Shown: positions 3,268-64,000, counted from the first letter of the stretch. The stretch is DNA of 64,000 nucleotides from Neoroseomonas eburnea (GCF_018129005.1 NZ_JAAEDL010000002.1:77897-141896), one strand, 5' to 3'. Numbers and translations: made by a program. Notes: generated by a model not told the origin, from the sequence alone.

Positions 3268-3932
3268 GCTTCGGGCAGCTCCCCTACGACGTCGCGCACC
3301 TGCTGGGCGGCGGCGTGCTGCTGTTCTCCTTCGTGCTGCTCTACCAGCGGCGGATCGGGGCGGTGATCAACGCCTTCGCGACGCAGGGCACGCTGCTGGC
3401 GATCGCCGCGGCCTGGCAGGGCTACGTGCAGGGGGCGCCGGGGCTCTACGTGACGGCGGTGCTGGCGCTGGCGGCCAAGGGCGTGCTGATCCCGCTCGCC
3501 CTGCACGCCATCGTCCGGCGGCTCGACCTGCACCGCACGGTGGAGACCGCGCTCGGCATCGGGCCGTCGCTGGTGGCGGGGGTGGGGCTGGTGGGGCTCG
3601 CGATCCTCGTCGTGCTGCCGGCGACCGAGGGCGCGCGCGCGCTGGCGCGGGAGGACCTCGCCCTCGCCCTGTCCGTCGTGCTGCTGGGCATGCTCATGAT
3701 GATCACGCGCCGCAACGCCATCAGCCAGGTGATCGGGCTGCTCAGTCTCGAGAACGGGCTGATCCTCGCCGCCATCGGCGTCGCCGGCATGCCGCTGGTG
3801 GTGGAGCTCTCCACCGCCGCGCTGGTGCTGATGGTCGCCGTCGTCGCCGGCGTCTTCGCCTTCCAGATCCGGGAGCGCTTCGACACGCTCGACACCGGCA
3901 GCCTGGAAGAACACCGCGGAGAGCGGCGCTGA
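3264..3932 (+). CDS. HyfE-like small membrane subunit
   Basis: GTG at 3264 overlaps the TGA of the upstream gene. About 222 aa, hydrophobic throughout (VSFGQLPYDVAHLLGGGVLLFSFVLLYQRR...). Position and size match HyfE. Confidence 0.55.
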   Translation: MSFGQLPYDVAHLLGGGVLLFSFVLLYQRRIGAVINAFATQGTLLAIAAAWQGYVQGAPGLYVTAVLALAAKGVLIPLALHAIVRRLDLHRTVETALGIGPSLVAGVGLVGLAILVVLPATEGARALAREDLALALSVVLLGMLMMITRRNAISQVIGLLSLENGLILAAIGVAGMPLVVELSTAALVLMVAVVAGVFAFQIRERFDTLDTGSLEEHRGERR

Positions 3933-39189: not shown

Positions 39190-39225
39190 GCACGTGATAT
39201 AAGCCGCGCCGGTGGGTCCCCGTAG

Positions 39226-39302
39226 CTCAGCAGGATAGAGCACAGGATTCCTAATCCTGGGGCCGTGAGTTCGAATCTCGCCGGGGACGCCACTTCCAGT
39301 TC
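39226..39302 (+). tRNA. tRNA-Arg (anticodon CCT)
   Basis: Acceptor stem is gtccccg/cggggac, discriminator g, encoded CCA. The anticodon loop is ttCCTaa in stem cagga/tcctg. TTCGAAT T-loop. Total 77 nt. Confidence 0.85.
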
Positions 39303-39588
39303 GTCAAACTATGCTCTTGGCCCGGTGGCCTCGCCGTGAGGCGCAGGTTTCCCGTGATTCTTGTACGTGGGCTGGCCACCGGGCACAGGGACCGACGCCC
39401 CGAAATCCTCTCTCTCGGGCGGCCTCTCTCCGAACCTGGTGACTTGGCCGATTATCGAGCCACGCTGAAAGCCGCGGAAAACATCGACTTTCTGCGGCAG
39501 AAGTGCGGCGCAGTTGGCAGAGCGCATGGGGGAGCGAAGCAGTCTCCCACCGAATCGTTGATGGGTAGCCAACTGGTCAGCACCACCA

Positions 39589-42756
<3,168 letters not shown>

Positions 42757-42835
42757 CCTCTCTGTGACCGCCTCGGCGCCCGAAACCGGTCGCGAGATGC
42801 ACGTCTCGGGACGCAAGGCGCCTGCCGCGAGAAGG

Positions 42836-43447
42836 TCAGAGGCATGCCTCAATCCCCTCGCGGAAGACACGGAAGCTGACGGTGCGATTGGCGGAGGCAG
42901 TCATGTTCTCCGCGATTCGACGCGCGGCTTCGATCTTCTGGTAGGTGCCGGGATAGTAGCCGTGCTTCTTCAGAAACCTGTGCAGGGCCTCCCACGAGCC
43001 GCCATTCTCTGGGTTCCGGAACGGCGACGCCGCAAGCTTGATCTGCGGCAGCCTCGGAAATGTGACGCGCAGGGCGTCAGGATCCCCAAGAAACCAGGAT
43101 TCCAACTCTTCGATCGCTATGCGCGCCACAACCGTGAAGGGCGAGCCCCCGCGCGCGGCCGACTTCGTGATCAGTCCGGCCGCTTGCGCCGCCCGTTCCA
43201 TCTGGGCCTTCAGTGCCGTGCAGTCGTCCTGGTCGCGGTCCACCAGCACGAGGACGCGGAGATCCTCGCCGCCTTTCAGCCTGTCCGCATATCCGCGAAG
43301 CCGTGCCTCCAGCTTCTTGAGGAGGGCGTGCTTGCTGCCGAGATTGATGATCTTGATCCGAGCGCGCCCCTGCACGATCCGCGGCAGCAGCACCTGCAAC
43401 GCAGCTTCGGCCGAGGGCTCCTCCACCAGGACCTCGATCCGGCGCAT
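42836..43447 (-). CDS. DUF4276-like protein with TOPRIM-type acidic motifs (E...DxD), putative nuclease partner of the adjacent ATPase
   Basis: [24 protein letters not shown] (conserved Glu) and [12 protein letters not shown] (DxD) follow the TOPRIM pattern. About 204 aa. The start overlaps the ATPase stop (gTGAtg). Confidence 0.65.
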
Positions 43448-44646
43448 CACGCGGTCTCCGAGGCCAGCGGGTCGCCGACCTCGAAATGCCCTTCCATCCA
43501 GATCTCGCCCAGGCTCGCCCCCTGGTTGAGGAAGGCCATAGCGCCCGGCATGTCGGCCACCCGCTTGGCGGCAGTGTAGCCTTGGGCGTTACGGTAAAGG
43601 ACCCGGACTTCCTTCGGATCCATCGAATTGATGAAGAAAGGCGAGTGTGTGGTGATGATGAGCTGCGTGCGGGCCGAGGCGCTGCGGCATTCCTCGGCGA
43701 GTTCGGGCAGCAGGCGCGGGTGCAGGAAGTTCTCCGGCTCCTCGATGCCGATCAGGCGCGGCGGATTGGGATCGTAGAGCAGCGTGAGGTAGGCGAGCAG
43801 CTTCAGCGTCCCGTCGGATACGAAACGCGACAGCACGGGCGTCGAGAAGGGCGCGTCCTTGAAAAGCAGCAGCAGGCGGCTGTCCGCCAGCACCTCGGCC
43901 TCGACCTTCTCGATGCGCGGGACACGGCGACGCAAGGTCTCGAAGATCTGATCCAGCCGTTCGGGATGCTGATCGCGGAGATACTGGATGACGTTGGGCA
44001 GGTTGCTGCCGTCGGGCGAGAGCCTCTCCTCAGCGCCGGCTTCTGGGCTGCCGCGCGCGGCCTCGGCCGACAGGTAGGAGAGGTGCCAGCTGGTGATGAA
44101 GTTCCGCAGCGCGATGACGCGCGGGTTCTCGGCGAGCGTGCCGAGCGTGGAGACTGCAAGAACGTCGGGCCCGGCCAGTGAGCGTTCAACCCGGGTGTCC
44201 TTGTCCTCTGGTTGCTCGCCGGTGATGACGCGGCCCTGGCCGTTCTCGTAGTCCAGGAAACGGAAGGGCTTGCCGCCTTTGCCGCGCGTCCAGCTCAGGT
44301 ACTCGCGCGCGACGACCGGGCCTCGGCGCGTCTCGTCCAGCTCAAGGTGATACGTGATCAGCGGGGTCTTCGGGGCTTCGCGGTACTTGATCTCGATGAG
44401 GATCCGGCCTTCGCTGTCGCGGCTGCGCAATTCCCGGAAGCGGCCGCGCCGGTCCCATGGCTTGCGGATGCCTTCCTGGAAGGCTTCGGCTAGGAAGGCG
44501 AACACGTCGAACACTGTGGACTTGCCGCTGCCATTCGGGCCGAGCAGGACGGTGACGTCCGTCAGATCTTTCAGCGTCAGGTCGCGCAGCGCGCGGTAGT
44601 TCTGCACCTGTAGGCTGAGGATCCGCGGCGGGGGGGGAAGCGTCAT
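43447..44646 (-). CDS. ABC-type/AAA_21-family ATPase (OLD/AriA/PtuA-like) embedded in the Type I R-M operon
   Basis: Walker A is [11 protein letters not shown]. The ABC signature is like [14 protein letters not shown]. Walker B is [14 protein letters not shown]. The H-loop is IITTHSP. ATG overlaps the hsdS stop (ATGA). Confidence 0.8.
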
Positions 44647-45915
44647 GCGGCGGTTTCCATCAGGCGCTCGGCGTCGTGCACGCGGAGTTCGCCCGACATC
44701 AGACGAGGGAGGAGGAGGTCGCGGGTAGCGGCGAGGGTGCGGGACTCAAGGGAGTTGGCGAGGCTGCGCTGAAAAAGCGGCGCGATCAGCTCGTCGGCGG
44801 CCTTCATGATCTCACGAGATCCAATCACCGTCATCGCTTCCGAGAGATGGTGCCGCTGAATGTGCCCCATCGTTGTCGCCTTGGACGCCGCAATGGCCTG
44901 AAATCGAGGCAGGTGGTGGTCCACCCAAAGGTAGTGCAGCCACTTCGGCCACTCCTTGGACGTGACCTTGAAGAGGTGCTGGTTCAGCGCGCCGCGACCA
45001 CCCGTCCAGACGCGCTGGAGCAGGCTGCCTGACCAGGAGAACAGGATGTCCCCATCCTCGACGACATACTGCGGCGGGATGGCGCGCGAGGCACGGTCGC
45101 TGCCGCTCGGGCTGCCGGCCCGGAGCTCAGCGATCTTGATCACCGGCAGGTCGTCGTCGCCGGTGCCGGGGTACTTCTGAAGCGCGAGGCCGTTCAGGAA
45201 GTCCGCGATCTGGTCGAGCGGCACTTCGCGCCACCCCTCCGGCTTCCCCTCCGCGTCGAGGCGATCGGGGAACAGGGCCCAGAGGTCGGGGGCGAGGTAG
45301 GGCGGGCTGCCTTCCATCTTGGCGCGGGTGGGGCCGAAGGCGACGAACCAGTCCTGGAAGATCGCCCGCGCCATCGCCTCCAGCGTCTCGTTCATCCGCC
45401 GGTTCAACTCGATCTTGTCGTCGAGCGCGCCGAGGATCGAGGAAATCGCCTGCCGTTCGTGACGCGGCGGGAGCACGATCGGCAGCCGCGAGAGGTCTCT
45501 GAGGTTCAGGGTCGCCTGAACCGTTGTGTTGAGGCGGCTTTGAATCATCGACGCGGCGGCGGACGACCGAAGGCCAAGTTGGACCCAATACGGCCCAACC
45601 TCCGGCTTGACCGGCAATACGGCGATGGCGCGAGCCACATTCCAGCCGGCCATATCGGGTGGAACAATGGCGGTCTCGCCCACAGTCCCCACGATGGTAA
45701 TGAGCAACTCGCCGCCACGCAGCCGTGTGCGGCCGTACGCGCGCTCGATATCTGCCGAGACGCGCAGGGGCGACCGGACTTCAATGCGGCCGTTTCGCAC
45801 ATCGGAAACTCTGACGATCGGCACGCCATCAGGAACCGGTGATCCCGGCTGCACGATGCCGTATGAGATGCCGCGTTGTGGGTCCACCAACTCGCTGAGC
45901 GGAACGGATGGCCAG

Positions 45916-45926
<11 letters not shown>
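44643..45926 (-). CDS. hsdS: Type I restriction-modification specificity subunit (HsdS)
   Basis: Two target-recognition domains are separated by a central conserved helix, with a C-terminal conserved helix ([12 protein letters not shown]). The start was set at [14 protein letters not shown] (45926), overlapping the hsdM stop by 11 nt. Confidence 0.85.
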
Positions 45927-47760
<1,834 letters not shown>

Positions 47761-47903
47761 GGCTTCCCGGGATCATATTGGCGAAGCAGCCTGCCGATTC
47801 GGGGCTGCGGCGCGATATGATCAACCATGGGTGGAACGGATTCAATCGCGCGATGGATTATGCCTGGTCCGCGCGGGAATCTTGTCCGTGTGCCTGCCGT
47901 GCG

Positions 47904-48297
47904 TCACCCGAGAGCGCGACGTTGCTCCGCCCACGCGTCGTCGATCAACATCCCGGGCCGGATGCTGTTTGCGTCCACGGTCTGCCGGCCATCGAGGATG
48001 CCCTCCAACAGATCCGGCGCCAACAGGGTTAAGCGCAGCAGGCGCGCGACATAGGACCGATCTGCTCCCTCGGCGACGGCCAAGTCGCGCATGGAGGCGT
48101 ACCGCCCCTCCTCCAGCATCCGCCGCCACCGGAACGCCCGCGCCAGCGCCTTGACCAGGGCTGGGTCGCCGCTAGTGGCTTCCACACCCAACCCGTCCTG
48201 GCCAGCCCGCACCGGCGACCCATCCGGCCCAACGATCTGCTTCCGCCCTCCGCGGCGGCGAATCGTCATCGGCACCACTACCGTCACGCTGCTCATG
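47904..48297 (-). CDS. Small HTH (ParB/KorB-like helix-turn-helix) protein translationally coupled to the serine recombinase
   Basis: ATG overlaps the recombinase stop (ATGA). MSSVTVVVPMTIRRRGG...YASMRDLAVAEGADRSYVARLLRLTLLAPDLLEGI resembles the ParB-type HTH. Confidence 0.5.
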
Positions 48298-49624
48298 CTG
48301 CGATCGCCTCCCGCGGCTTCGCCGCCATGTCCCGCGCCAGCCCAGCGAGCCCCTCCAGGTTCAGCCGAATCTCTGCGCCCTTCTCGGTGACCGTCACACG
48401 CTCGACGAGCAGCCGCACGATCCGCTCCTGCTCGCCGGGGAACAGTTCGTCCCAAAGGGGATCGAGCCGCCCAAGCCCGTCGCGCACCTCCGCCTCGGTC
48501 AGGTCCGGCGCCTCCTCCCGCGCAGCCCGCCAGGTGCCGACGACGACCTCCGGCTGGCGCAGGAGCGCCCGGATCTGCGCCAGCACCAGCCCCTCGATCT
48601 CCCCGGCCGGCAGGCGCCGGAGCGGTGCGTCGTCTGCCCCGCCCTGCAGCACCGCCTGGCTGACGTAATAGCGGTAGAGCCGCCCCTTCTTTCGCGTATG
48701 GGTCGGCGACATCGCCCGCCCGTCCGGCCCGAACAGCAGGCCGCGCAGCAGCGCCGGCGCGGTGGCGCGGTTCTTCGCCGCGCGGGCGCGCGGGCTCTCG
48801 ACCATGATGGCGTGCACCCGGTCCCACAGCTCCCGCGGGATGATGGCGGCGTGCTCGCCGGGATAGGATGTCCCCTTGTGCACCGCCTCGCCGAGAAAGG
48901 TCCGGTTCACCAGCAGCTTGTAGACGGCCCCCTTGTCGAAAGGCCGGCCGGTCTTGGTGACGAGGCCCTCGGCGCGGAGGACGGGCAGCAGCCGCGTGGC
49001 GGATCCGATCTCGGCGAAGTTCTCGAACACGCGGCGCACCGTCGCAGCGCCCGCCTCGTCCACCACGAGCTTGCGGTTCTCGACCCGGTAGCCGAGCGGC
49101 ACCGGACCGCCCATCCACATGCCCCGCGCGCGCGAGGCGGCGATCTTGTCGCGAACGCGCTCGCCGATGATCTCCCTCTCATACTGGGCAAAGCTCAGCA
49201 GGATGTTCAGCGTGAGCCGGCCCATGCTGGTGGTGGTATTAAAGCTCTGAGTGACAGCAACAAACGTGACCTCGTTGTCGTCGAAGGTCTGCACCAGCTT
49301 GGCGAAGTCCATCAGCGAGCGGGACAGACGATCAATTTTATAACAGACGATGACGTCGATCAGGCCGGCCTCAATATCGGCCAGCAATCGCTTCAATGCG
49401 GGGCGATCGAGCGTGCCGCCCGACACGCCGCCATCATCGTAGCGATCGTGCACCAGCACCCAGCCCTCGGAGCGCTGCGACGTGATGAAGGCCTCGCACG
49501 CGGCCCGCTGCGCGTCGAGCGAGTTGAACTCCTTCTCCAGCCCCTCGTCTGTGGATTTGCGGGTGTAGACGGCGCAGCGGAGCTTGCGGATTTTCGCCGG
49601 CAGGACGGGTTCGCGGCGGGTCAT
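48293..49624 (-). CDS. Large serine recombinase (resolvase/invertase N-terminal catalytic domain plus recombinase and zinc-ribbon/coiled-coil C-terminal domains)
   Basis: The N-terminus is LRCAVYTRKSTDEGLEKEFNSLDAQR (catalytic Ser in the RKST context), then DVIVCYKIDRLSRSLMD. At about 443 aa with the C-terminal extension it is a large serine recombinase. Confidence 0.85.
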   Translation of the reverse strand: MTRREPVLPAKIRKLRCAVYTRKSTDEGLEKEFNSLDAQRAACEAFITSQRSEGWVLVHDRYDDGGVSGGTLDRPALKRLLADIEAGLIDVIVCYKIDRLSRSLMDFAKLVQTFDDNEVTFVAVTQSFNTTTSMGRLTLNILLSFAQYEREIIGERVRDKIAASRARGMWMGGPVPLGYRVENRKLVVDEAGAATVRRVFENFAEIGSATRLLPVLRAEGLVTKTGRPFDKGAVYKLLVNRTFLGEAVHKGTSYPGEHAAIIPRELWDRVHAIMVESPRARAAKNRATAPALLRGLLFGPDGRAMSPTHTRKKGRLYRYYVSQAVLQGGADDAPLRRLPAGEIEGLVLAQIRALLRQPEVVVGTWRAAREEAPDLTEAEVRDGLGRLDPLWDELFPGEQERIVRLLVERVTVTEKGAEIRLNLEGLAGLARDMAAKPREAIAA

Positions 49625-50109
49625 GCGCCGGGCTTCCGCAGCCCGAAGAACACCCAGCCATTCCAGCGCGTGCCGGTGATGGCGCGGGCGATGGCGGAAA
49701 GCGACTGGTAGGGGCGACCCTGGTATTCGTAGCCGTCGCGCGTGACGGTGACGACATGCTCGACGCCCTGGTACTCGCGGATCAGCCGCGTGCCAGCGAT
49801 CGGCCGCTGCTCGTGGCGGATGCGGCGCAGGGTGATATTCCGGCCGTCGAACTGCTCACCCAGTGCCTCGAGGCGTTCCAGCGTCTCCCTCTTCAGGCCG
49901 CCATAGGCCAGCTCCTGGATGCGATATGCGAGGCGGCTCTCCAGGAAGCGCCGATTATAGGGCGGCGGCTCGGTGCCGAAGAGGCTGCGCCATTCGGCCT
50001 TCAACTCGCCGATGGGCATGCCGGGCAGCGCGGCGAGGCGCGCCGGCACGTCCGGCTTCGGGAGGGCGGTGATCGTCGTCGTCATGGTGTTCGGCTTCGC
50101 GCGGGTCAT
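49621..50109 (-). CDS. DUF2924 family protein (conserved partner of large serine recombinases)
   Basis: Its stop overlaps the recombinase ATG (ATGA). LPGMPIGELKAEWRSLFGTEPPPYNRRFLESRLAYRIQELAYGGL fits the DUF2924 pattern. Confidence 0.6.
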   Translation of the reverse strand: MTRAKPNTMTTTITALPKPDVPARLAALPGMPIGELKAEWRSLFGTEPPPYNRRFLESRLAYRIQELAYGGLKRETLERLEALGEQFDGRNITLRRIRHEQRPIAGTRLIREYQGVEHVVTVTRDGYEYQGRPYQSLSAIARAITGTRWNGWVFFGLRKPGA

Positions 50110-50312
50110 GCGTCTCCCTTTCTCCTGGGGTTCGCACGAAGGCGCTGGCCGGGGACGGAGTGTAGGCGAACCACGCGCTCGCCGCCGGCCGCGGGCGCGG
50201 CTTCCTCGGGAGCGCGACTCCTCAGCCGCAGCAGCCCGCGGGCGAGAAGGTCGCAGACCTCGCGAAGGTGAGGCGGGAGGTGGGCGTTGATGGGACGGTC
50301 GTCACGCTGCAT
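50106..50312 (-). CDS. Small hypothetical protein (68 aa) translationally coupled to the DUF2924 gene
   Basis: ATGA overlap with the DUF2924 start. Arg-rich (PHLREVCDLLARGLLRLRSR). It is a possible small DNA-binding/excisionase-like protein, or it could be spurious. Confidence 0.3.
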   Translation of the reverse strand: MQRDDRPINAHLPPHLREVCDLLARGLLRLRSRAPEEAAPAAGGERVVRLHSVPGQRLRANPRRKGDA

Positions 50313-50397
50313 GGCGTGACAATACGAATCGGCGATCGCCGCGGGGAGTGCTGAGTTGTAGCGCTACGCAGCGCTCCCGCTGGCAGGCCCGTCCGGC

Positions 50398-51129
50398 TCA
50401 GGCGACCGAGACATCCGGCGGCAGGATCACCACCCGCGCCCCGATCGGGACGCGCTGGTACAGGTCGATGATGTCCTGGTTGATCAGCCGCACGCAGCCT
50501 GCCGAGGCCATGGTGCCGATGGTCCAGGGCTCCACCGTGCCGTGCAGGCGGTAATAGGTGTCGACGCCGTCCTGGTAGAGGTAGAGCGCCCGCGCCCCGA
50601 GCGGATTGCGGCCGCCACCGGGCACGCCGTCGCGGAAGGCGCCATAGCGCTGCGGATCGCGCCGGACCATGTCGGGGGTCGGGCGCCAGTTCGGCCAGGC
50701 GGCCTTGCGCTCGACAAAGGCTTCGCCCGTGAGGTTGAAGGCCTCGTCCCGGCCAACGGCGATGCCGTAGCGCATGGCACGGCGGCCCTCGAGGGCCAGA
50801 TAGGCGTAGCGGGCGGCCGTATCGACGACGATGGTCCCGGGTTCGTCGTCGCGCGGATAGGCCACCTCGCGGCGGAGGAACCGCGGATCGATGCGCCGGA
50901 GGTTCACCGCTGGGATCCAAAAGCGATCCGTGGTGATGGCCGCGTAGATCCGGCGATAGTCCGGCTCGGCCGCCGGCACGGCCGCGGGCGAAGGTTCGGG
51001 CGCGACAGGCGGGGCGGCATCCGCCTGCGGCGACACCACGCTCGGCAGGGATCGCGGCGCTTCCGACGACGCGCACGCCGTGAGCAGGCCAGGCAGGCCG
51101 GCGACAAGGCTCCTTCGGCTAACGCGCAT
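50398..51129 (-). CDS. L,D-transpeptidase (YkuD/ErfK family) lipoprotein
   Basis: The lipobox is GLLTAC. The catalytic region is GTVEPWTIGTMASAGCVRLINQDIIDLY (the conserved Cys in the SxGChR-like motif). Confidence 0.8.
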   Translation of the reverse strand: MRVSRRSLVAGLPGLLTACASSEAPRSLPSVVSPQADAAPPVAPEPSPAAVPAAEPDYRRIYAAITTDRFWIPAVNLRRIDPRFLRREVAYPRDDEPGTIVVDTAARYAYLALEGRRAMRYGIAVGRDEAFNLTGEAFVERKAAWPNWRPTPDMVRRDPQRYGAFRDGVPGGGRNPLGARALYLYQDGVDTYYRLHGTVEPWTIGTMASAGCVRLINQDIIDLYQRVPIGARVVILPPDVSVA

Positions 51130-51220
51130 CGATCGTCCGGAATCCCCTGAGCAGCAGCAAAACTGCTTGCGCCAAGTCAACGATATGGACGGCGGCTTTG
51201 TCCACCGCCTCGGCCGCTGC

Positions 51221-51997
51221 CTACGCGCCCACCTGCCGTCCGAGCCAGATCACCCGCCCGATGACATGGACGTCGTCAGCGGTCAGGCCGCGCTGCGGCT
51301 GATAGGCGGGGTTGTCCGACAGCACGCTGAGCCGCGGCGGCCGACCCAGTTCCACCTGCACCCGCTTCACCTGCAGGCCGTTGCCCGTGCGGATGACGTA
51401 GATCCCGTCCTTGTCCCCAGGCTGGTTCTGCCGGAAGTCGACCAGAACCGTGTCGCCGGTGCGTAGCGTTGGCTCCATCGAATCCCCGTCTACCGTGATC
51501 ACCGCCAGCTGGTCGAGCGGGGCGGTGGTCACTGTGCGGACCCACTCCTCCCGGAAGGCAATGCGATAGACGACGGCCTCCCGGTCGATCTCCTGGCCAG
51601 GACCGGCTGAGGCGCGGGCGTCGTAGACCGGCAGCAGCGCCCAGTTGTCGCCGCCCATGCTGATCACCTCGGCCGCGGCCGGGCCGGTGTAGGAGGTGGG
51701 CGGCCGAGGCGGCGCGGCCTTGCGTCGCACCCGCTGGCCGAGCACCGCAGCGGCTTCCTCCGGGGTGTTGATGGCGATGCCGGCGTCGCCGGCCTCCTTG
51801 CCGAACAGCAGCATCTGCCAGGTGATGCCGAGGGGCACGGCGAGCTCGCGTGCGGCACGCGCGGTGAGTGGGCGGCGGCCGCTCTCATAGGCGCGATAGG
51901 TCGCCTCCGGGACGCCAGCGAGGCGGGCCAATTCGGCCCCTGAATCAATGCCCTTGGCTTCGCGAAAGCGGCGGAGGCGGTCTGCGGTGGATTCCAT
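51221..51997 (-). CDS. CI/LexA-like repressor (XRE-family HTH plus S24 peptidase domain)
   Basis: The HTH is AELARLAGVPEATYRAYESGRR. The S24 signatures are VDGDSMEPTL (the Ser nucleophile) and ...QVKRVQ (the Lys). It is divergently oriented from a Cro-like gene. Confidence 0.8.
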   Translation of the reverse strand: MESTADRLRRFREAKGIDSGAELARLAGVPEATYRAYESGRRPLTARAARELAVPLGITWQMLLFGKEAGDAGIAINTPEEAAAVLGQRVRRKAAPPRPPTSYTGPAAAEVISMGGDNWALLPVYDARASAGPGQEIDREAVVYRIAFREEWVRTVTTAPLDQLAVITVDGDSMEPTLRTGDTVLVDFRQNQPGDKDGIYVIRTGNGLQVKRVQVELGRPPRLSVLSDNPAYQPQRGLTADDVHVIGRVIWLGRQVGA

Positions 51998-52097
51998 GGC
52001 GCTGCAATATGTAGCGCTTTCATCGCGATTGTGTAGCAGGTTTCTGCATATACAAACAGTCTTGTTTGCGTGCCGCGACGGAGCGTATCTGTCCCGC
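51998..52097. promoter_or_regulatory. Divergent CI/Cro-type promoter-operator region
   Basis: A 100-bp AT-richer spacer carries TGTAGC half-sites (52010 tgtagcgc and 52032 tgtagcag) and a 16-bp palindrome CAAACAgtctTGTTTG (52053-52068). Confidence 0.4.
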
Positions 52098-52394
52098 ATG
52101 CCCGACCGCATCGCCCTCCGCAAACGGCCCGCCGAACCGGCACGCCCGGCGCTGTCGCCCGCGCTCCCGCCGCCCAAGAGCTTTGCCGACGTGATCGCCC
52201 TGTGGCCCAGCGCCGCTGAGCTCGCCGCCCTGCTGGATGTCGAGGCGGTCACTGTCCGCGCCTGGCGTCGCCGCGGGATCCCCGCCCGGTACTGGGCCGC
52301 GGTCGCCGAGGCGGCGCGCTTCAGCGGCCGACCCGTCGATGAGCGGCTGCTCGCCGGCTTGGGCTCCATCCGCAAGGGCCGCACCCATGGGTAA
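52098..52394 (+). CDS. Cro/early-regulator-like small DNA-binding protein
   Basis: 98 aa, divergent from the CI-like repressor. The C-terminal region AVTVRAWRRRGIPARYWAAVAEAA is HTH-like. Its stop overlaps the next gene's start. Confidence 0.45.
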   Translation: MPDRIALRKRPAEPARPALSPALPPPKSFADVIALWPSAAELAALLDVEAVTVRAWRRRGIPARYWAAVAEAARFSGRPVDERLLAGLGSIRKGRTHG

Positions 52395-57489: not shown

Positions 57490-58001
57490 TGAACGCACCA
57501 TGGAGGCGCGCACCTGCGCCGACCCCGGAAGTCTCGTCGCCGATGACCGAGACGGACAAGACCGACGAAAAGAGGAAACGCAAGCGCGCGCAGCAAAGGG
57601 AGTGGGCGCGAAAGAAGCGGGCTGTCGACCCCGAGAGGTTCCGGGAGGCGTACCGGCGATGGTTGGCCGCGAACCCTGAAAAGGCTCGTGAAGCGACACG
57701 TCGCTGGCAAGCGGCGAATCCAGACAAGGCACTCGCAAACGAGGTGCTGCGACGCGAGCAAAACAGGGAGAAACTGGCCGCCGATGCCGCCGCGCGCAGG
57801 AAAGCGGATCCAGAGAAATATCGTGAAGCTGCGCGCAAGTACCGCGCCGAACATCGAGAAGAGCTGGCCGCCGCAGCAGCTGCGCGACGGAGAGCCGATC
57901 CAGAAAAGTATCGTGAGGCTGTGCGCAGGTACCGCGCCGAAAACAAAGAAAAACTGGCCGAGCAACGGCGCGTGCGCCGTGCTGCAAAAAAGGCTGAGTA
58001 G
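57489..58001 (+). CDS. Highly charged tandem-repeat protein (K/R/E-rich, about 29-aa repeats)
   Basis: The unit RRKADPEKYREAARKYRAEHREELAAAAAA is followed by the near-identical unit RRRADPEKYREAVRRYRAENKEKLAEQRR, preceded by three degenerate copies (DPERFREAYRRW, NPEKAREATRRW, NPDKALANEV). At the DNA level it is a direct repeat of about 87 bp twice at 57790-57965. Confidence 0.5.
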   Translation: MNAPWRRAPAPTPEVSSPMTETDKTDEKRKRKRAQQREWARKKRAVDPERFREAYRRWLAANPEKAREATRRWQAANPDKALANEVLRREQNREKLAADAAARRKADPEKYREAARKYRAEHREELAAAAAARRRADPEKYREAVRRYRAENKEKLAEQRRVRRAAKKAE

Positions 58002-61363: not shown

Positions 61364-61587
61364 CCCTGCCAGGCGCTCCGCGACCGCCACGGTCGTCCCT
61401 CGACCTTGCCCGCAGCCCGACGACCAGCCCCGAGATGGAAGCCCTGCGCCGGCGCGTCTGGCGCGACCAGGGCGTGGTCTCGCTGGCGATCGACGACATC
61501 ACCGACCCCTGGCTGCGCCAGGCTGTCCAGAACGAAGCCACGCGGCGCTGGGGGCCGCGGAACGGAGGCGGTCAGCATGGCCGGTAA
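61360..61587 (+). CDS. Small hypothetical phage protein (75 aa)
   Basis: ATG overlaps the upstream stop (ATGA). Its stop overlaps the next start. Confidence 0.3.
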   Translation: MTLPGAPRPPRSSLDLARSPTTSPEMEALRRRVWRDQGVVSLAIDDITDPWLRQAVQNEATRRWGPRNGGGQHGR

Positions 61588-62158
61588 GCGCAGGACGAAG
61601 CAGCCCGCGATGCCGCGCGAGGATCTCGGCAGGCCGAGTGCGTGGCGGCTGCAGCATGGCAGCTTCGGAGATCCCGTACGCGAGGCCGATCCCGAGACGG
61701 GCACGCCGATCGCGCTGCGCCGTGCGGTCGACACGCTCGGGGCCATGCTGGCCAACGGCACCATCACCGCGCCGATGCACGACGCAGGGGTCGTGTTCCG
61801 AGGGCAGTTTCGCGCGGCGGCCCTCGACACGCTGCGCGCCATGCCGCTGATCCGCATCCCGGCTGGTAGCGGCGACCCGCTGACGGAGCGGCATGTGCAT
61901 GCACGTCGCAAGGTGGCTGCGGCCATGCACGTGTTGGGCGGGCAGGACAGCGCTGCGGGTTCCTGCGCCTGGCATGTCGTCGGCTGCGAGGCGTCGATCC
62001 GGGAATGGGCGACGCGGCAGGGATGGGGTGGAAAGCCCATCGGGCACAGCCAGGCGCAGGGCATCTTGATTGCAGCGTTGGGCGTTCTTGCATCGCATTA
62101 CGGACTTGCTGACCGGAGCAATGCCCTCTCGCGCAACGCTTCCAGCGCGGTGACGTGA
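61577..62158 (+). CDS. Hypothetical phage protein (193 aa, basic N-terminus MAGKRRTKQP)
   Basis: An ORF with an overlapping start in a tightly packed phage-like gene string. No assignable family. Confidence 0.35.
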   Translation: MAGKRRTKQPAMPREDLGRPSAWRLQHGSFGDPVREADPETGTPIALRRAVDTLGAMLANGTITAPMHDAGVVFRGQFRAAALDTLRAMPLIRIPAGSGDPLTERHVHARRKVAAAMHVLGGQDSAAGSCAWHVVGCEASIREWATRQGWGGKPIGHSQAQGILIAALGVLASHYGLADRSNALSRNASSAVT

Positions 62159-62222
62159 GGCGCGACAGCGCTACACCTTCGCACTCCCCGGTGGAATCCA
62201 CATGGAGTAGGTTTTTGCCATC

Positions 62223-62567
62223 GTGGATTGCTGCGCCGGCGGGGGCGACGTGATGCGGAAGTCAGCGCTGCGTATGCTGTCCTCCCGCATCGCGCGACAC
62301 GACACGCGCACCGCACTACCACCGCCGAAGCAGCCTGACCCGCACTACGGTTCCGCCGCCCATCGTGAATGGCGTGCCGCTGTCCTTGCCCGCGCTGGCC
62401 ATGCTTGCCAGCGCTGTGGGCGCCGCGGCGTACGGCTCTACGCCGACCACATCGTCGAACTGCAGGACGGTGGTGCGGCGCTCGACGTGACGAACGGCCA
62501 GGCGCTGTGCGGTGCCTGCCACACGACCAAGACCGCCGCCGCCCGCGCCGCGCGCATGGCGCGCTGA
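62223..62567 (+). CDS. HNH endonuclease
   Basis: CQRCGRRGVRLYADHIVELQDGG...NGQALCGACH carries the HNH zinc-finger cysteines plus the catalytic His (DHIVE) and Asn. The true start may be ATG 62253 (MRKSAL). Confidence 0.7.
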   Translation: MDCCAGGGDVMRKSALRMLSSRIARHDTRTALPPPKQPDPHYGSAAHREWRAAVLARAGHACQRCGRRGVRLYADHIVELQDGGAALDVTNGQALCGACHTTKTAAARAARMAR

Positions 62568-62682
62568 CCCCGCACCCCCTGCCGATGGGGAGGGGGGATC
62601 GGATCTCTGGCGCCTTGGGGCGCCCCTCCGCGACGGGGGACACGCAGGGATTTTTCCCTCCCTAAAAAGGCGGAGTTCACAC

Positions 62683-64000
62683 ATGCAGCGAGACTGGCCG
62701 GCCGATGCGGTGGAGCGGCGGCCGGTGGCGTCGCTGCTGCCCTACGCCCGCAATGCGCGCACCCACAGCGAGGCGCAGGTTGCGCAGATCGCCGCCGCCA
62801 TCCGCGAATGGGGCTGGACGGTGCCGGTACTGGTCGACGAGGCGGGCCAGCTGATCGCCGGCCATGGCCGCGTGCTGGCCGCGAAGTCCCTCGGCCTGCT
62901 CGACGTGCCGGCGATGGTCGCACGCGGATGGTCCGAGGCCGACAAGCGCGCCTATGCGCTGGCCGACAACAAGCTGACGCTGAACGCCGGCTGGGATGCC
63001 GATCTGCTGAAGGGCGAGCTGTTCGAGCTGCGCTCGGAGGGCTTCGACCTCGGCCTGACCGGCTTCGGCGCCGATGAGGTGGCGGGGCTGCTCGGTGATC
63101 TCGCAGAGGTGGCCGCGACGGACACGGGCGAGACCGGGGGCGGATCCGGCGGCGGCGGCGGCATCGGTGCTGGCGGTGGTGCCGAGAGGGACGAGGATCC
63201 CGCAGACGCCGAGCCGGTGCCGCCGCGCCAGGCCGTCACCCGCACGGGCGATCTCTGGCTGCTCGGCGAGCATCGCCTGCTCTGCGGCGACAGCACCGAC
63301 GCCGCCTGCGTCGCCCGCGTGCTGGGCGCGGACCGCGCGGCGCTGCTGTTCACTTCGCCGCCCTACGGCAACCAGCGCGCCTACACCACCGGCGGCATCT
63401 CGGATTGGGACGCGCTGATGCAGGGGGTGTTTCAGCACCTGCCGGCGATCCTCGCCGAGGACGGTCAGGCGCTGGTGAACCTCGGGCTGATCCATCGCGA
63501 CGGCGAATGGCAGCCCTACTGGCAGGGCTGGGTGGAATGGATGCGCGCGCAGGGCTGGCGGCGCTTCGGGCTCTACGCCTGGGACCAGGGGCCGGGCCTG
63601 CCGGGGGACTGGAACGGCCGGCTGGCCCCGGCCTTCGAGCTGGTGTTCCACTTCAACCGGAAGTCGCGCCAGCCGAACAAGATCATCCCCTGCAAATGGG
63701 CGGGGACGGAGAACAAGGGCAGCGGGCTGCGCGCTGCCGATGGCGAGGTGAAGGCCTACACCCATGCCGGCCTGCCGGTGCAGGAGATGCGCATCCCGGA
63801 CAGCGTGCTGCGCATCACGCGGCACAAGGGGCGGGGGATCGAGACCGAGCACCCGGCGGTGTTCCCGGTCGCGCTGCCGGAACTGTTGCTGCAGAGCTAC
63901 GCCAACCTCGGCGATGCAGTGTTCGAGCCCTTCGCCGGCTCCGGCACGACGATCCTGGCCGGGCAGCGCACGGGGCGGAAGGTCAGAGCGATCGAACTGG
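62683..64000 (+). CDS. ParB-like nuclease domain fused to a DNA methyltransferase domain (partial, runs off the window)
   Basis: The N-terminal ParB/Srx-like part is LLPYARNARTHSEAQVAQIAAAIREWGWTVPVLVDEAGQLIAGHGRVLAA. After a Gly-rich linker the MTase motif is LFTSPPYGNQRAY, with a C-terminal AdoMet-binding FEPFAGSGTT. Confidence 0.8.
   Translation, partial: MQRDWPADAVERRPVASLLPYARNARTHSEAQVAQIAAAIREWGWTVPVLVDEAGQLIAGHGRVLAAKSLGLLDVPAMVARGWSEADKRAYALADNKLTLNAGWDADLLKGELFELRSEGFDLGLTGFGADEVAGLLGDLAEVAATDTGETGGGSGGGGGIGAGGGAERDEDPADAEPVPPRQAVTRTGDLWLLGEHRLLCGDSTDAACVARVLGADRAALLFTSPPYGNQRAYTTGGISDWDALMQGVFQHLPAILAEDGQALVNLGLIHRDGEWQPYWQGWVEWMRAQGWRRFGLYAWDQGPGLPGDWNGRLAPAFELVFHFNRKSRQPNKIIPCKWAGTENKGSGLRAADGEVKAYTHAGLPVQEMRIPDSVLRITRHKGRGIETEHPAVFPVALPELLLQSYANLGDAVFEPFAGSGTTILAGQRTGRKVRAIEL

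Follow-up and report, generated by a model that had tools for sequence, protein, structure and literature searches.

A conserved four-gene serine integrase cassette in a tRNA-Arg prophage of Neoroseomonas eburnea, with a recurrent sequence box upstream of its first gene

The stretch of Neoroseomonas eburnea DNA analysed here (64,000 nt, NZ_JAAEDL010000002.1:77897-141896; hereafter the window) carries on its minus strand a cassette of four genes built around a large serine recombinase (LSR), and this cassette is the integrase module of a prophage at a tRNA-Arg gene. The phage spans at least 39.3-64 kb of the window. Taken as a whole, the reading in which the four genes form a temperate-phage integration cassette at the 3' end of tRNA-Arg(CCT), with the sequence box in front of them most likely bound by the phage regulators CI/Cro, is the one we consider probable. 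The four open reading frames (ORFs), in the order of transcription, are:

50106-50312, minus strand: small68, 68 aa, first gene of the operon (tblastn across loci; structure model; AcaML1 Gp5)
49621-50109, minus strand: DUF2924 protein (PF11149 at 3e-53)
48293-49624, minus strand: LSR (integrase), 443 aa (Pfam; phrog_95 integrase; PDB match)
47904-48296, minus strand: p130, 130 aa (phrog_14161; structure model; Foldseek)

Adjacent genes overlap by ATGA, which is found on the coding strand at 3/3 junctions (50106-09, 49621-24 and 48293-96). The overlapped operon proposed in the initial annotation is therefore real, and the small ORF, which had been offered there as a possible fourth gene, is a conserved one. 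Relatives were fetched by means of the recombinase and comprise 80 genome loci and 80 viral contigs; 164 loci, referred to by L numbers where needed, enter the tblastn counts. DUF2924, LSR and p130 stand in the same order in about 160 of them, the exceptions being a few short or truncated contigs. Small68 is taken as a real gene because it was detected by tblastn in 123 of the 164 loci, has 389 database homologues and matches Gp5 of phage AcaML1 (31 % identity, E 2e-4). AcaML1, in which the same four genes lie at the att (attachment) end, is an active inducible lysogenic phage (PMC3826726).

At 443 aa, the LSR lies at the short end of the size range of large serine recombinases; it is 100 % identical to a Roseomonas eburnea protein. 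It contains the Pfam domains Resolvase (PF00239, 2.7e-39) and Recombinase (PF07508, 1.9e-13) together with a borderline Zn_ribbon_recom (PF13408, 26.2 bits vs a cut-off of 25.3), and PHROGs labels it an integrase (phrog_95). The top match among solved structures is the catalytic domain of the TP901-1 integrase (4e-23), where YTRKST is aligned with YTRVST at the serine motif. Other matches are a 500-residue chain annotated 'Integrase' (9iu2) and, more weakly, the SPbeta and phiC31 integrases; for small resolvases and DNA invertases, the match covers the catalytic domain that they have in common. Among annotated relatives, phage integrases rank first, with 54 % identity to the AcaML1 enzyme and 37 % to that of Wolbachia WO. 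The conservation of the cassette in about 160 loci and in phage AcaML1 therefore places the LSR in the phage-integrase clade. A transposon-type affiliation, which the initial annotation had named among the findings that would refute its proposal, fails because the closest structures are phage integrases and TnpX is a weak match (6e-08). A TnpX/TndX-like recombinase was rejected as a candidate for the additional reason that the loci lie at specific tRNA 3' ends. Most likely, this LSR would catalyse integration between the phage (attP) and bacterial (attB) attachment sites.

The end of the element is defined by two features on the opposite strand, more than 8 kb beyond the cassette:

39216-39292, plus strand: tRNA-Arg(CCT), bacterial side of attL (ARAGORN, Rfam)
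39293-39544, plus strand: non-coding end of the element, conserved, about 255 nt; P' arm of attP (nhmmer profile)

An att site had originally been expected at 47.76-47.90 kb, right next to p130. None lies there, and the element continues to tRNA-Arg at 39.2 kb. The interval 47761-47903 holds no repeats; homology to the relatives breaks at about 47982, in the poorly conserved tail of p130, is replaced by 5-9 kb of unrelated sequence, and resumes only at about 39.5 kb, over positions 39540-39293. In the relatives, a tRNA-Arg, -Glu or -Gly gene occupies the equivalent position downstream, on the opposite strand and with its 3' end facing the cassette. At the tRNA-Arg boundary of the window the GC content changes from about 0.72 to about 0.66. 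The cassette is also present on the Shinella 'plasmid' NZ_CP069303, with no tRNA gene within the 11 kb downstream of it and no annotation.

Beyond the conserved arm, three types of flank can be distinguished. The first is a whole tRNA and corresponds to attL. The second is a pseudo-T-arm (CAGAGAAGGTTGGAATCCGGTTCCCACCGCT) joined via a tRNA-end hexamer (ACGCCA or GCTCCA), that is, an attP-like junction, and the third is the 3' half of a tRNA with foreign DNA before it. The attP-like junctions sit on viral metagenome contigs but also within chromosomes, where they suggest tandem elements at one tRNA. Loci L021 (12936-21314) and L018, both on NZ_CP192601.1, lie 64 kb apart at one Sediminicoccus tRNA-Glu. 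Copper/silver efflux and multicopper-oxidase genes were seen beside the P arm in two unrelated contigs (L021; L120:12934-16212).

The last six bases of the tRNA-Arg(CCT) gene, ACGCCA (39287-39292), are the core that recurs at attP-like junctions. Average-linkage clusters of the LSRs correspond exactly to the core hexamer (21/21 for ACGCCA and 22/22 for GCTCCA). In the P arm, 24 nt separate the core from a T-loop-like motif (GGTTGGAATCC); in the tRNAs, the distance between core and motif (GGTTCGAATCC) is 19 nt. This difference in spacing yields the 5-bp offset expected of LSR attP versus attB sites. Such an offset between attP and attB half-sites of LSRs was reportedly described by Rutherford et al. 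in 2013. The sites thus combine a shared core of 6 nt with an attP motif placed 5 bp further out, as expected for the short att sites of LSRs. In the proposed mechanism, the 443-aa LSR would be the integrase and would recombine a phage site, the left arm of which mimics the tRNA T-loop (GGTTGGAATCC), with the genuine tRNA gene; crossover would occur within the last six or so bases of the tRNA (ACGCCA).

One alternative is that the cassette is not the integrase of the prophage but an independent serine-recombinase element, or an invertase or resolvase serving the cargo, the phage enzyme being encoded beyond the window. Genomes with several copies of the cassette would be accounted for in this way, as would the 8.4 kb from the cassette to the element end with variable cargo beside the cassette, the inversion of the cassette relative to the tRNA in L046 and L066, and the position of the far element end outside the sequence seen. 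However, LSR clade and core hexamer of the tRNA agree without exception, and the distance between cassette and tRNA shrinks to about 1.1 kb in L018. In AcaML1 the cassette is at the att end and no other integrase is annotated, its annotation listing no tyrosine integrase. Moreover, a core of only 6 nt and an offset of 5 bp between the arms agree with LSR sites and not with tyrosine-integrase sites, and tandem or multiple prophages explain the copy number. We regard an independent element as very improbable, and the four genes are treated below as the integrase module of the prophage.

The interval that separates the P' arm from the cassette is a hot spot for cargo, filled in the window by type I restriction-modification genes that are cargo inside the element:

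39589-47760, minus strand: cargo slot, type I restriction-modification with an embedded HEC-01 pair (Pfam, PADLOC for the slot and for each of its genes)
39589-42870, minus strand: HsdR
42836-43450, minus strand: DUF4276 (HEC-01)
43447-44646, minus strand: AAA_21 ATPase (HEC-01)
44643-46043, minus strand: HsdS
45916-47760, minus strand: HsdM

The equivalent slot of the relatives is occupied by unrelated cargo of 5-9 kb. An HsdM-like methyltransferase was detected by tblastn somewhere in 31 of 150 other loci, often with only 25-32 % identity.

The P' arm is conserved over a much greater length than recombination by an LSR would require. It was recognised with an nhmmer profile in more than 50 loci (e.g., L018:12536-12788), where it adjoins three different tRNAs or the P arm, lying directly 3' of Arg, Glu and Gly tRNAs. 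Its polarity is constant across loci except in L046 and L066. In these two (L046:8043-11661 and L066:20-3564), a tRNA and a partial arm are found upstream of the cassette and the orientation is inverted. An LSR half-site would need only the first 25 nt or so, yet the remaining 230 nt or so are conserved too. In the arm of the window, CTCTC(C) is repeated three times on one strand, near 39312, 39408-16 and 39424-31 (about +25, +115 and +135). Across the arms, CTCTC occurs 2.5 times per arm vs 0.35 expected, a 7-fold enrichment that does not extend to the opposite strand.

Searches of the P' arm for another kind of function gave negative results: it matches no Rfam family and holds no conserved ORF, its RNAalifold consensus is empty or weak, the strand in the window has z = -1.7 only, and no stretch of it matches or complements the target or agrees with the tRNA ends in a type-specific way. 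On these grounds, the idea that the arm encodes a structured or guide RNA was rejected. Because Rfam family, ORF, firm fold and target complementarity are all missing, the arm is best regarded as protein-binding DNA, possibly a docking site of the three proteins encoded together with the LSR.

Of these partner proteins, small68 is basic, with one predicted helix (residues 14-37), in which HLPPHLREVCDLLARGLLRLRSR is conserved, and a disordered tail; it has no Pfam model. The DUF2924 protein matches PF11149 with 180 bits vs a cut-off of 31.2 (E 3e-53, profile positions 2-135 of 135). Its C-terminal half, putatively DNA-binding, resembles the RAMA domain in a sub-threshold match; DUF2924 has been linked to the RAMA domain (PMC11342252). 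The third partner, p130, belongs to phrog_14161, labelled 'recombinase' in PHROGs, and its AcaML1 homologue is annotated as 'recombinase small subunit'. It consists of a basic N-terminal arm and a putative ParB/Noc-like helix-turn-helix (HTH) core, residues 45-101, which form the confident part of the structure model. The best Foldseek matches are ParB/Noc/Spo0J proteins (probability up to 0.98, rmsd 1.8 A over 53 residues, E only about 0.4), and by sequence there is a weak match to SopB (E 0.7). It has no Pfam match, its family has no Pfam model, and the N-terminal CTPase domain of ParB is absent. The family is large, with 12,869 matching cluster representatives at 50 % clustering. Of the top 150 representatives listed, almost every one is a protein of 93-240 aa that stands alone, and two are longer (277 and 407 aa), which rules out that p130 is a detached C-terminal domain of longer recombinases. 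We predict it to be a small DNA-binding partner with a ParB-like HTH.

The initial annotation had drawn a parallel with temperate phages whose serine integrases have an accessory directionality factor. Nothing supports such a role for any of the three partners, all of which are co-transcribed with the integrase. The three co-translated partners, namely the basic helix protein, the DUF2924/RAMA protein and the ParB-like HTH protein, would be DNA-binding or adaptor subunits. Their site of action would be the P' arm, which is conserved over an unusual length and carries the CTCTC repeats. A tentative extension, which we find possible without calling it likely, is that this LSR clade is a multi-subunit serine integrase that targets tRNA/tmRNA 3' ends by way of the T-loop, with DUF2924, p130 and small68 bound to the P' arm. 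In such a case the partners and the LSR may form an intasome-like complex on the CTCTC-repeat arm, unlike all characterised LSRs.

The expression of the cassette brings in a sequence box, found upstream of small68 and again near the end of the window:

50319-50367, minus strand: control region, with GTAGCGCTAC 50358-67, GCGCTACA 50357-64, N6, CACTCCCC 50343-50, N18, TATTGT 50319-24, 6 nt, ATG
50398-51180, minus strand: YkuD L,D-transpeptidase gene, accessory, between the cI stop and the box (Pfam)
62168-62225, plus strand: second full box, GCGCTACA-ccttcg-CACTCCCC-18 nt-TAGGTT, 9 nt, GTG (box itself 62168-62213)
62223-62567, plus strand: HNH endonuclease gene, GTG start, led by the second box copy

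The starting point was the palindrome GTAGCGCTAC (50358-50367), said to be followed by AGCGCT (50370-50375). Both are present, and the palindrome is unchanged in 11 related loci in which the surrounding bases vary. However, the unit that recurs is not the palindrome but an asymmetric box, GCGCTACA-N6-CACTCCCC-N18-TAnnnT, the hexamer of which lies 6-9 nt before the start codon. On the coding strand upstream of small68, it reads GTAGCGCTACA-actcag-CACTCCCC-18 nt-TATTGT-cacgcc-ATG. The window has exactly two full copies of the box, one ahead of the integrase operon and one ahead of the HNH gene at 62.2 kb, and its pattern was found 0 times in 100 shuffles of the window. The 8-mer GCGCTACA, with 3 occurrences vs 1.3 expected, is not significant by count when taken alone, nor is the palindrome; significance is reached by the composite box alone. 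The 11 related loci possess the same cI/cro pair (cI 69-99 % identical), and in them the blocks of the box are invariant and the spacers vary. A variant, GCGCTACA-N5-GCGCTCCC, is present in L053, L058 and L065.

Besides the window, L003, L004, L008 and L085 have the YkuD gene; it is absent from L006, L032 and L044, where the stop codon of cI abuts or overlaps the palindrome. Since the insertion of YkuD beside cI leaves the box untouched, the box belongs to the integrase operon. The HNH gene behind the second box is followed by a ParB_N/N6_N4 methyltransferase ORF (62491-64000) that runs past the window end. GANTC sites of the CcrM type are located inside both box promoters (50325-50329 and 62194-62198).

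The box lies in the upstream part of a promoter that is putatively leaderless, where it would span about -52 to -31; it is not a dyad operator over the -35/-10 region. None of the cI, cro, small68 and HNH genes has a Shine-Dalgarno sequence, and in all four a -10-like hexamer stands 5-9 nt ahead of the start codon (regions 51998-52100, 50313-50324 and 62208-62225), which suggests leaderless mRNAs throughout the phage control regions. All four copies of the motif are oriented with transcription. The two copies besides the full boxes are found between cI and cro:

51221-51997, minus strand: CI-like repressor, HTH_3/HTH_31 + Peptidase_S24 (Pfam, PHROGs; the gene call of contig L166 agrees)
51998-52097, no strand: cI-cro spacer, with GCGCTACA 52010-17 (-), GCTACA 52032-37 (-) and a dyad 52053-68
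52098-52394, plus strand: Cro-like small HTH protein, divergent from cI (weak YdaS/HTH_17 and phrog_8008 matches)

This arrangement, i.e., a repressor with HTH and S24 domains, a divergent small HTH gene and repeated sites in a 100-bp spacer, is the layout of a lambda-type switch. The half-sites originally noted in the spacer, TGTAGCGCT at 52010-52018 and TGTAGCAG at 52032-39, are in place. GCGCTACA lies beside the ATG of cI and GCTACA 22 bp further, both in the orientation of cI. The match between the integrase promoter region and the spacer is thus real and conserved, but it needs to be restated, as only GCGCTACA or GCTACA of the asymmetric box, and not the palindrome, appear outside the full copies. 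Together with the dyad CAAACA-N4-TGTTTG, they are conserved in seven aligned cI-type sequences (the window and six loci). Of the 14 loci positive for the box, 11 have the cI/cro pair; of the 150 negative for it, none has Cro.

We give the binding of CI/Cro to the box somewhat better than an even chance. In that event, the expression of the integrase and HNH operons would be tied to the immunity switch, and transcription of the former would start from a probably leaderless promoter whose upstream half is GCGCTACA-N6-CACTCCCC. As the box is kept in all 11 related loci with this cI/cro pair, repressor control of the integrase operon is plausible, and the serine integrase under immunity control that the initial annotation proposed has withstood the refutations named there. 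No intrinsic terminator was found between cI and the integrase operon in a scan of 50.2-52.2 kb, so that a box-bound repressor could also block read-through, and the bound regulator would then stop transcription coming from cI before it enters the integrase operon.

Several points weigh against this reading. The association of the box with cI/cro is not phylogenetically independent because the loci concerned represent one phage lineage, and the loci with the variant box (L053, L058 and L065) lack a homologue of cI/cro within 10 kb. Of the dyads in the spacer, the best one, CAAACA-N4-TGTTTG (52053-68), differs in sequence from the box and overlaps the likely cro promoter; it could be the true CI operator. 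The promoter and leaderless calls rely on weak hexamers, and a strict sigma-70 promoter scan of 50.2-52.2 kb found nothing. The second box at 62168 is missing from L004, the only relative that reaches the region. With regard to integration, attR was not found in the window or in the fetched loci, no empty attB was seen, and the window ends inside the element; the crossover position and the lack of another integrase at the opposite end are therefore inferred. Finally, the placement of the box upstream of the putative -35/-10 is compatible with an activator as much as with a repressor.

This last point leads to the view that a phage transcription activator, and not CI, acts on the box, either an establishment factor of the lambda CII type or the GafA-like product of the gene directly upstream of the second box, and that both operons are switched on together:

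61577-62158: g61577, 193 aa, directly upstream of the second box (DUF6456 sub-threshold)

The box, at about -52 to -31, lies across a -35 that departs from the consensus, as at activator-dependent promoters. The match of g61577 to DUF6456 is GafA-like but scores 18.7 bits, under the curated threshold of 26.3; GafA binds -35 regions through its C-terminal domain (PMC9638019). L053 and L065 possess a g61577 homologue and the variant box and lack cI, as an activator would allow, and in L128 the integrase promoter duplicates an early promoter beside a phage sigma-like gene. Nevertheless, the box is upstream of the integrase operon in only 4 of the 10 loci with a g61577 homologue, and downstream of g61577 in the window only. 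L004, with a homologue that is 70 % identical, keeps the box beside cI and has none downstream of this homologue. We therefore consider an activator unlikely and retain CI/Cro as the favoured regulators.

Some observations on these loci stand on their own. Homologues of g61577 were found in 10 loci and as Gp20 of AcaML1, and GGAATCC-N8-GTAGATT is conserved downstream of several of them. In L108, a long inverted repeat lies about 110 nt downstream of position 3601, downstream of the g61577 homologue; its arms are GCTACA-N6-GGAGTGGGACAT, with the second half of the box flipped. When 10-mers from upstream of the integrase were looked for in the rest of each locus, the outcome was mostly noise in this high-GC DNA, apart from duplicated promoters of the L128 and L139 types. 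L128 (5984-6988, 9250-9298) has a 33-nt promoter-like sequence, TGATACGGATT-N11-GAGTAATGGCT, both before the integrase operon and before the early replication operon, and a Sigma70_r2 phage protein is encoded beside the early-operon copy. The copying of a phage promoter before the cassette thus recurs in at least one other lineage.

According to a third view, a host factor or an alternative sigma factor recognises the box as a promoter element, and the copies in the spacer are the -35 (GCTACA) and -10 (TACATA) of the cI promoter, so that recurrence would reflect a shared promoter type and not a shared regulator. GCTACA and GCGCTACAta are 18 nt apart, at -40 to -35 and -16 to -11 from the ATG of cI, every copy points with transcription, and GANTC sites are conserved in both box promoters. 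However, GCGCTACA of both full boxes is too far upstream (about -52 to -45) to serve as a -35, the box is confined to one phage lineage and is not general in the Acetobacteraceae loci, and the flipped second half in L108 would not be tolerated in a sigma element. A host factor is accordingly the least probable of the candidate box-binding activities, and we think it improbable in absolute terms.

One feature elsewhere in the phage is a 90-nt tandem duplication (74 % identity) at 57753-57932, between the helicase and DUF6511 genes.

The closest known system is AcaML1 (JX507079). Its genes Gp5-Gp4-Gp3-Gp2 have the same order, are att-proximal and carry the annotation 'site specific recombinase large/small subunit'; identities amount to 54 % for the LSR, 44 % for DUF2924, 42-43 % for p130 and 31 % for the small ORF. 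The phage integrates in ssrA, a tRNA-like target, with a 10-bp repeat (PMC3826726). On the other hand, AcaML1 has two p130 paralogues (Gp1 and Gp2), different regulators and no box. Similarity to the P' arm is not detectable either, and CTCTCT/CTCTG at a similar distance from the core provides a weak parallel.

The integrases of Bxb1, TP901-1, phiC31 and A118 and SprA of SPbeta share with the LSR the domain order, in which the zinc ribbon of the LSR is borderline, and the aligned catalytic serine motif. Characterised serine integrases also have a short shared core and an attP arm motif 5 bp further out than in attB. In contrast to the cassette of the window, they act alone on att sites of about 40-50 bp, with a separately regulated directionality factor; here, there are three translationally coupled partners, a tRNA 3' end as target and about 230 nt conserved beyond the half-site. 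The Wolbachia WO enzyme, 37 % identical, is a distant relative in a different regulatory context. The reported integration sites of WO are not known to be tRNA genes. A DUF2924 gene is nevertheless found immediately upstream of the WO recombinase (PMC10299305). Among alphaproteobacterial temperate phages, Paracoccus phage vB_PamS_Pami6 has a serine recombinase and a tRNA-Met target (PMC6536676), a likeness by description only, as no accessory genes or arm are described for it.

As regards the box, the asymmetric repressor sites of mycobacteriophage L5, bound by gp71 and reportedly described as 'stoperators' by Brown et al. in 1997, offer one parallel. These sites too are asymmetric, intergenic, always oriented with transcription and present outside the immunity region, and a block of read-through is possible in the lysogen. 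L5 has about 30 of them, compared with 3-4 in the visible 25 kb of the present element. The putative regulator sites of the window differ in being upstream of promoters at a fixed spacing from a -10-like hexamer. The lambda promoters PRE, PI and PaQ provide another parallel, with one type of site at the repressor region, at the integrase promoter and at a third promoter, straddling a poor -35. The sequence and geometry of the CII sites are different, the third copy here goes with downstream genes and is not antisense, and no CII homologue was identified in the window phage.

Large serine integrases are prized in genome engineering for their short sites and their independence of cofactors. The clade described here appears to differ in three ways: it is constantly accompanied by three small partners, it uses tRNA 3' ends with about six shared bases, and it has a long conserved arm. 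An obligatory three-partner architecture, T-loop mimicry with a six-base core and a long conserved arm were not found in the literature searched. Two of the three partner proteins represent large families without a Pfam model. Should the partners prove to be required subunits, the clade would constitute a distinct mechanistic class of serine integrase. In the Paracoccus study, the sites of most serine-recombinase prophages were not identifiable (PMC6536676), and the short core may help to explain such 'not identified' sites in Alphaproteobacteria. Moreover, the cassette marks a slot for defence-gene cargo beside the att end, and the shared promoter box offers a directly testable connection of the immunity switch with the expression of the integrase and with the operon headed by the HNH gene.

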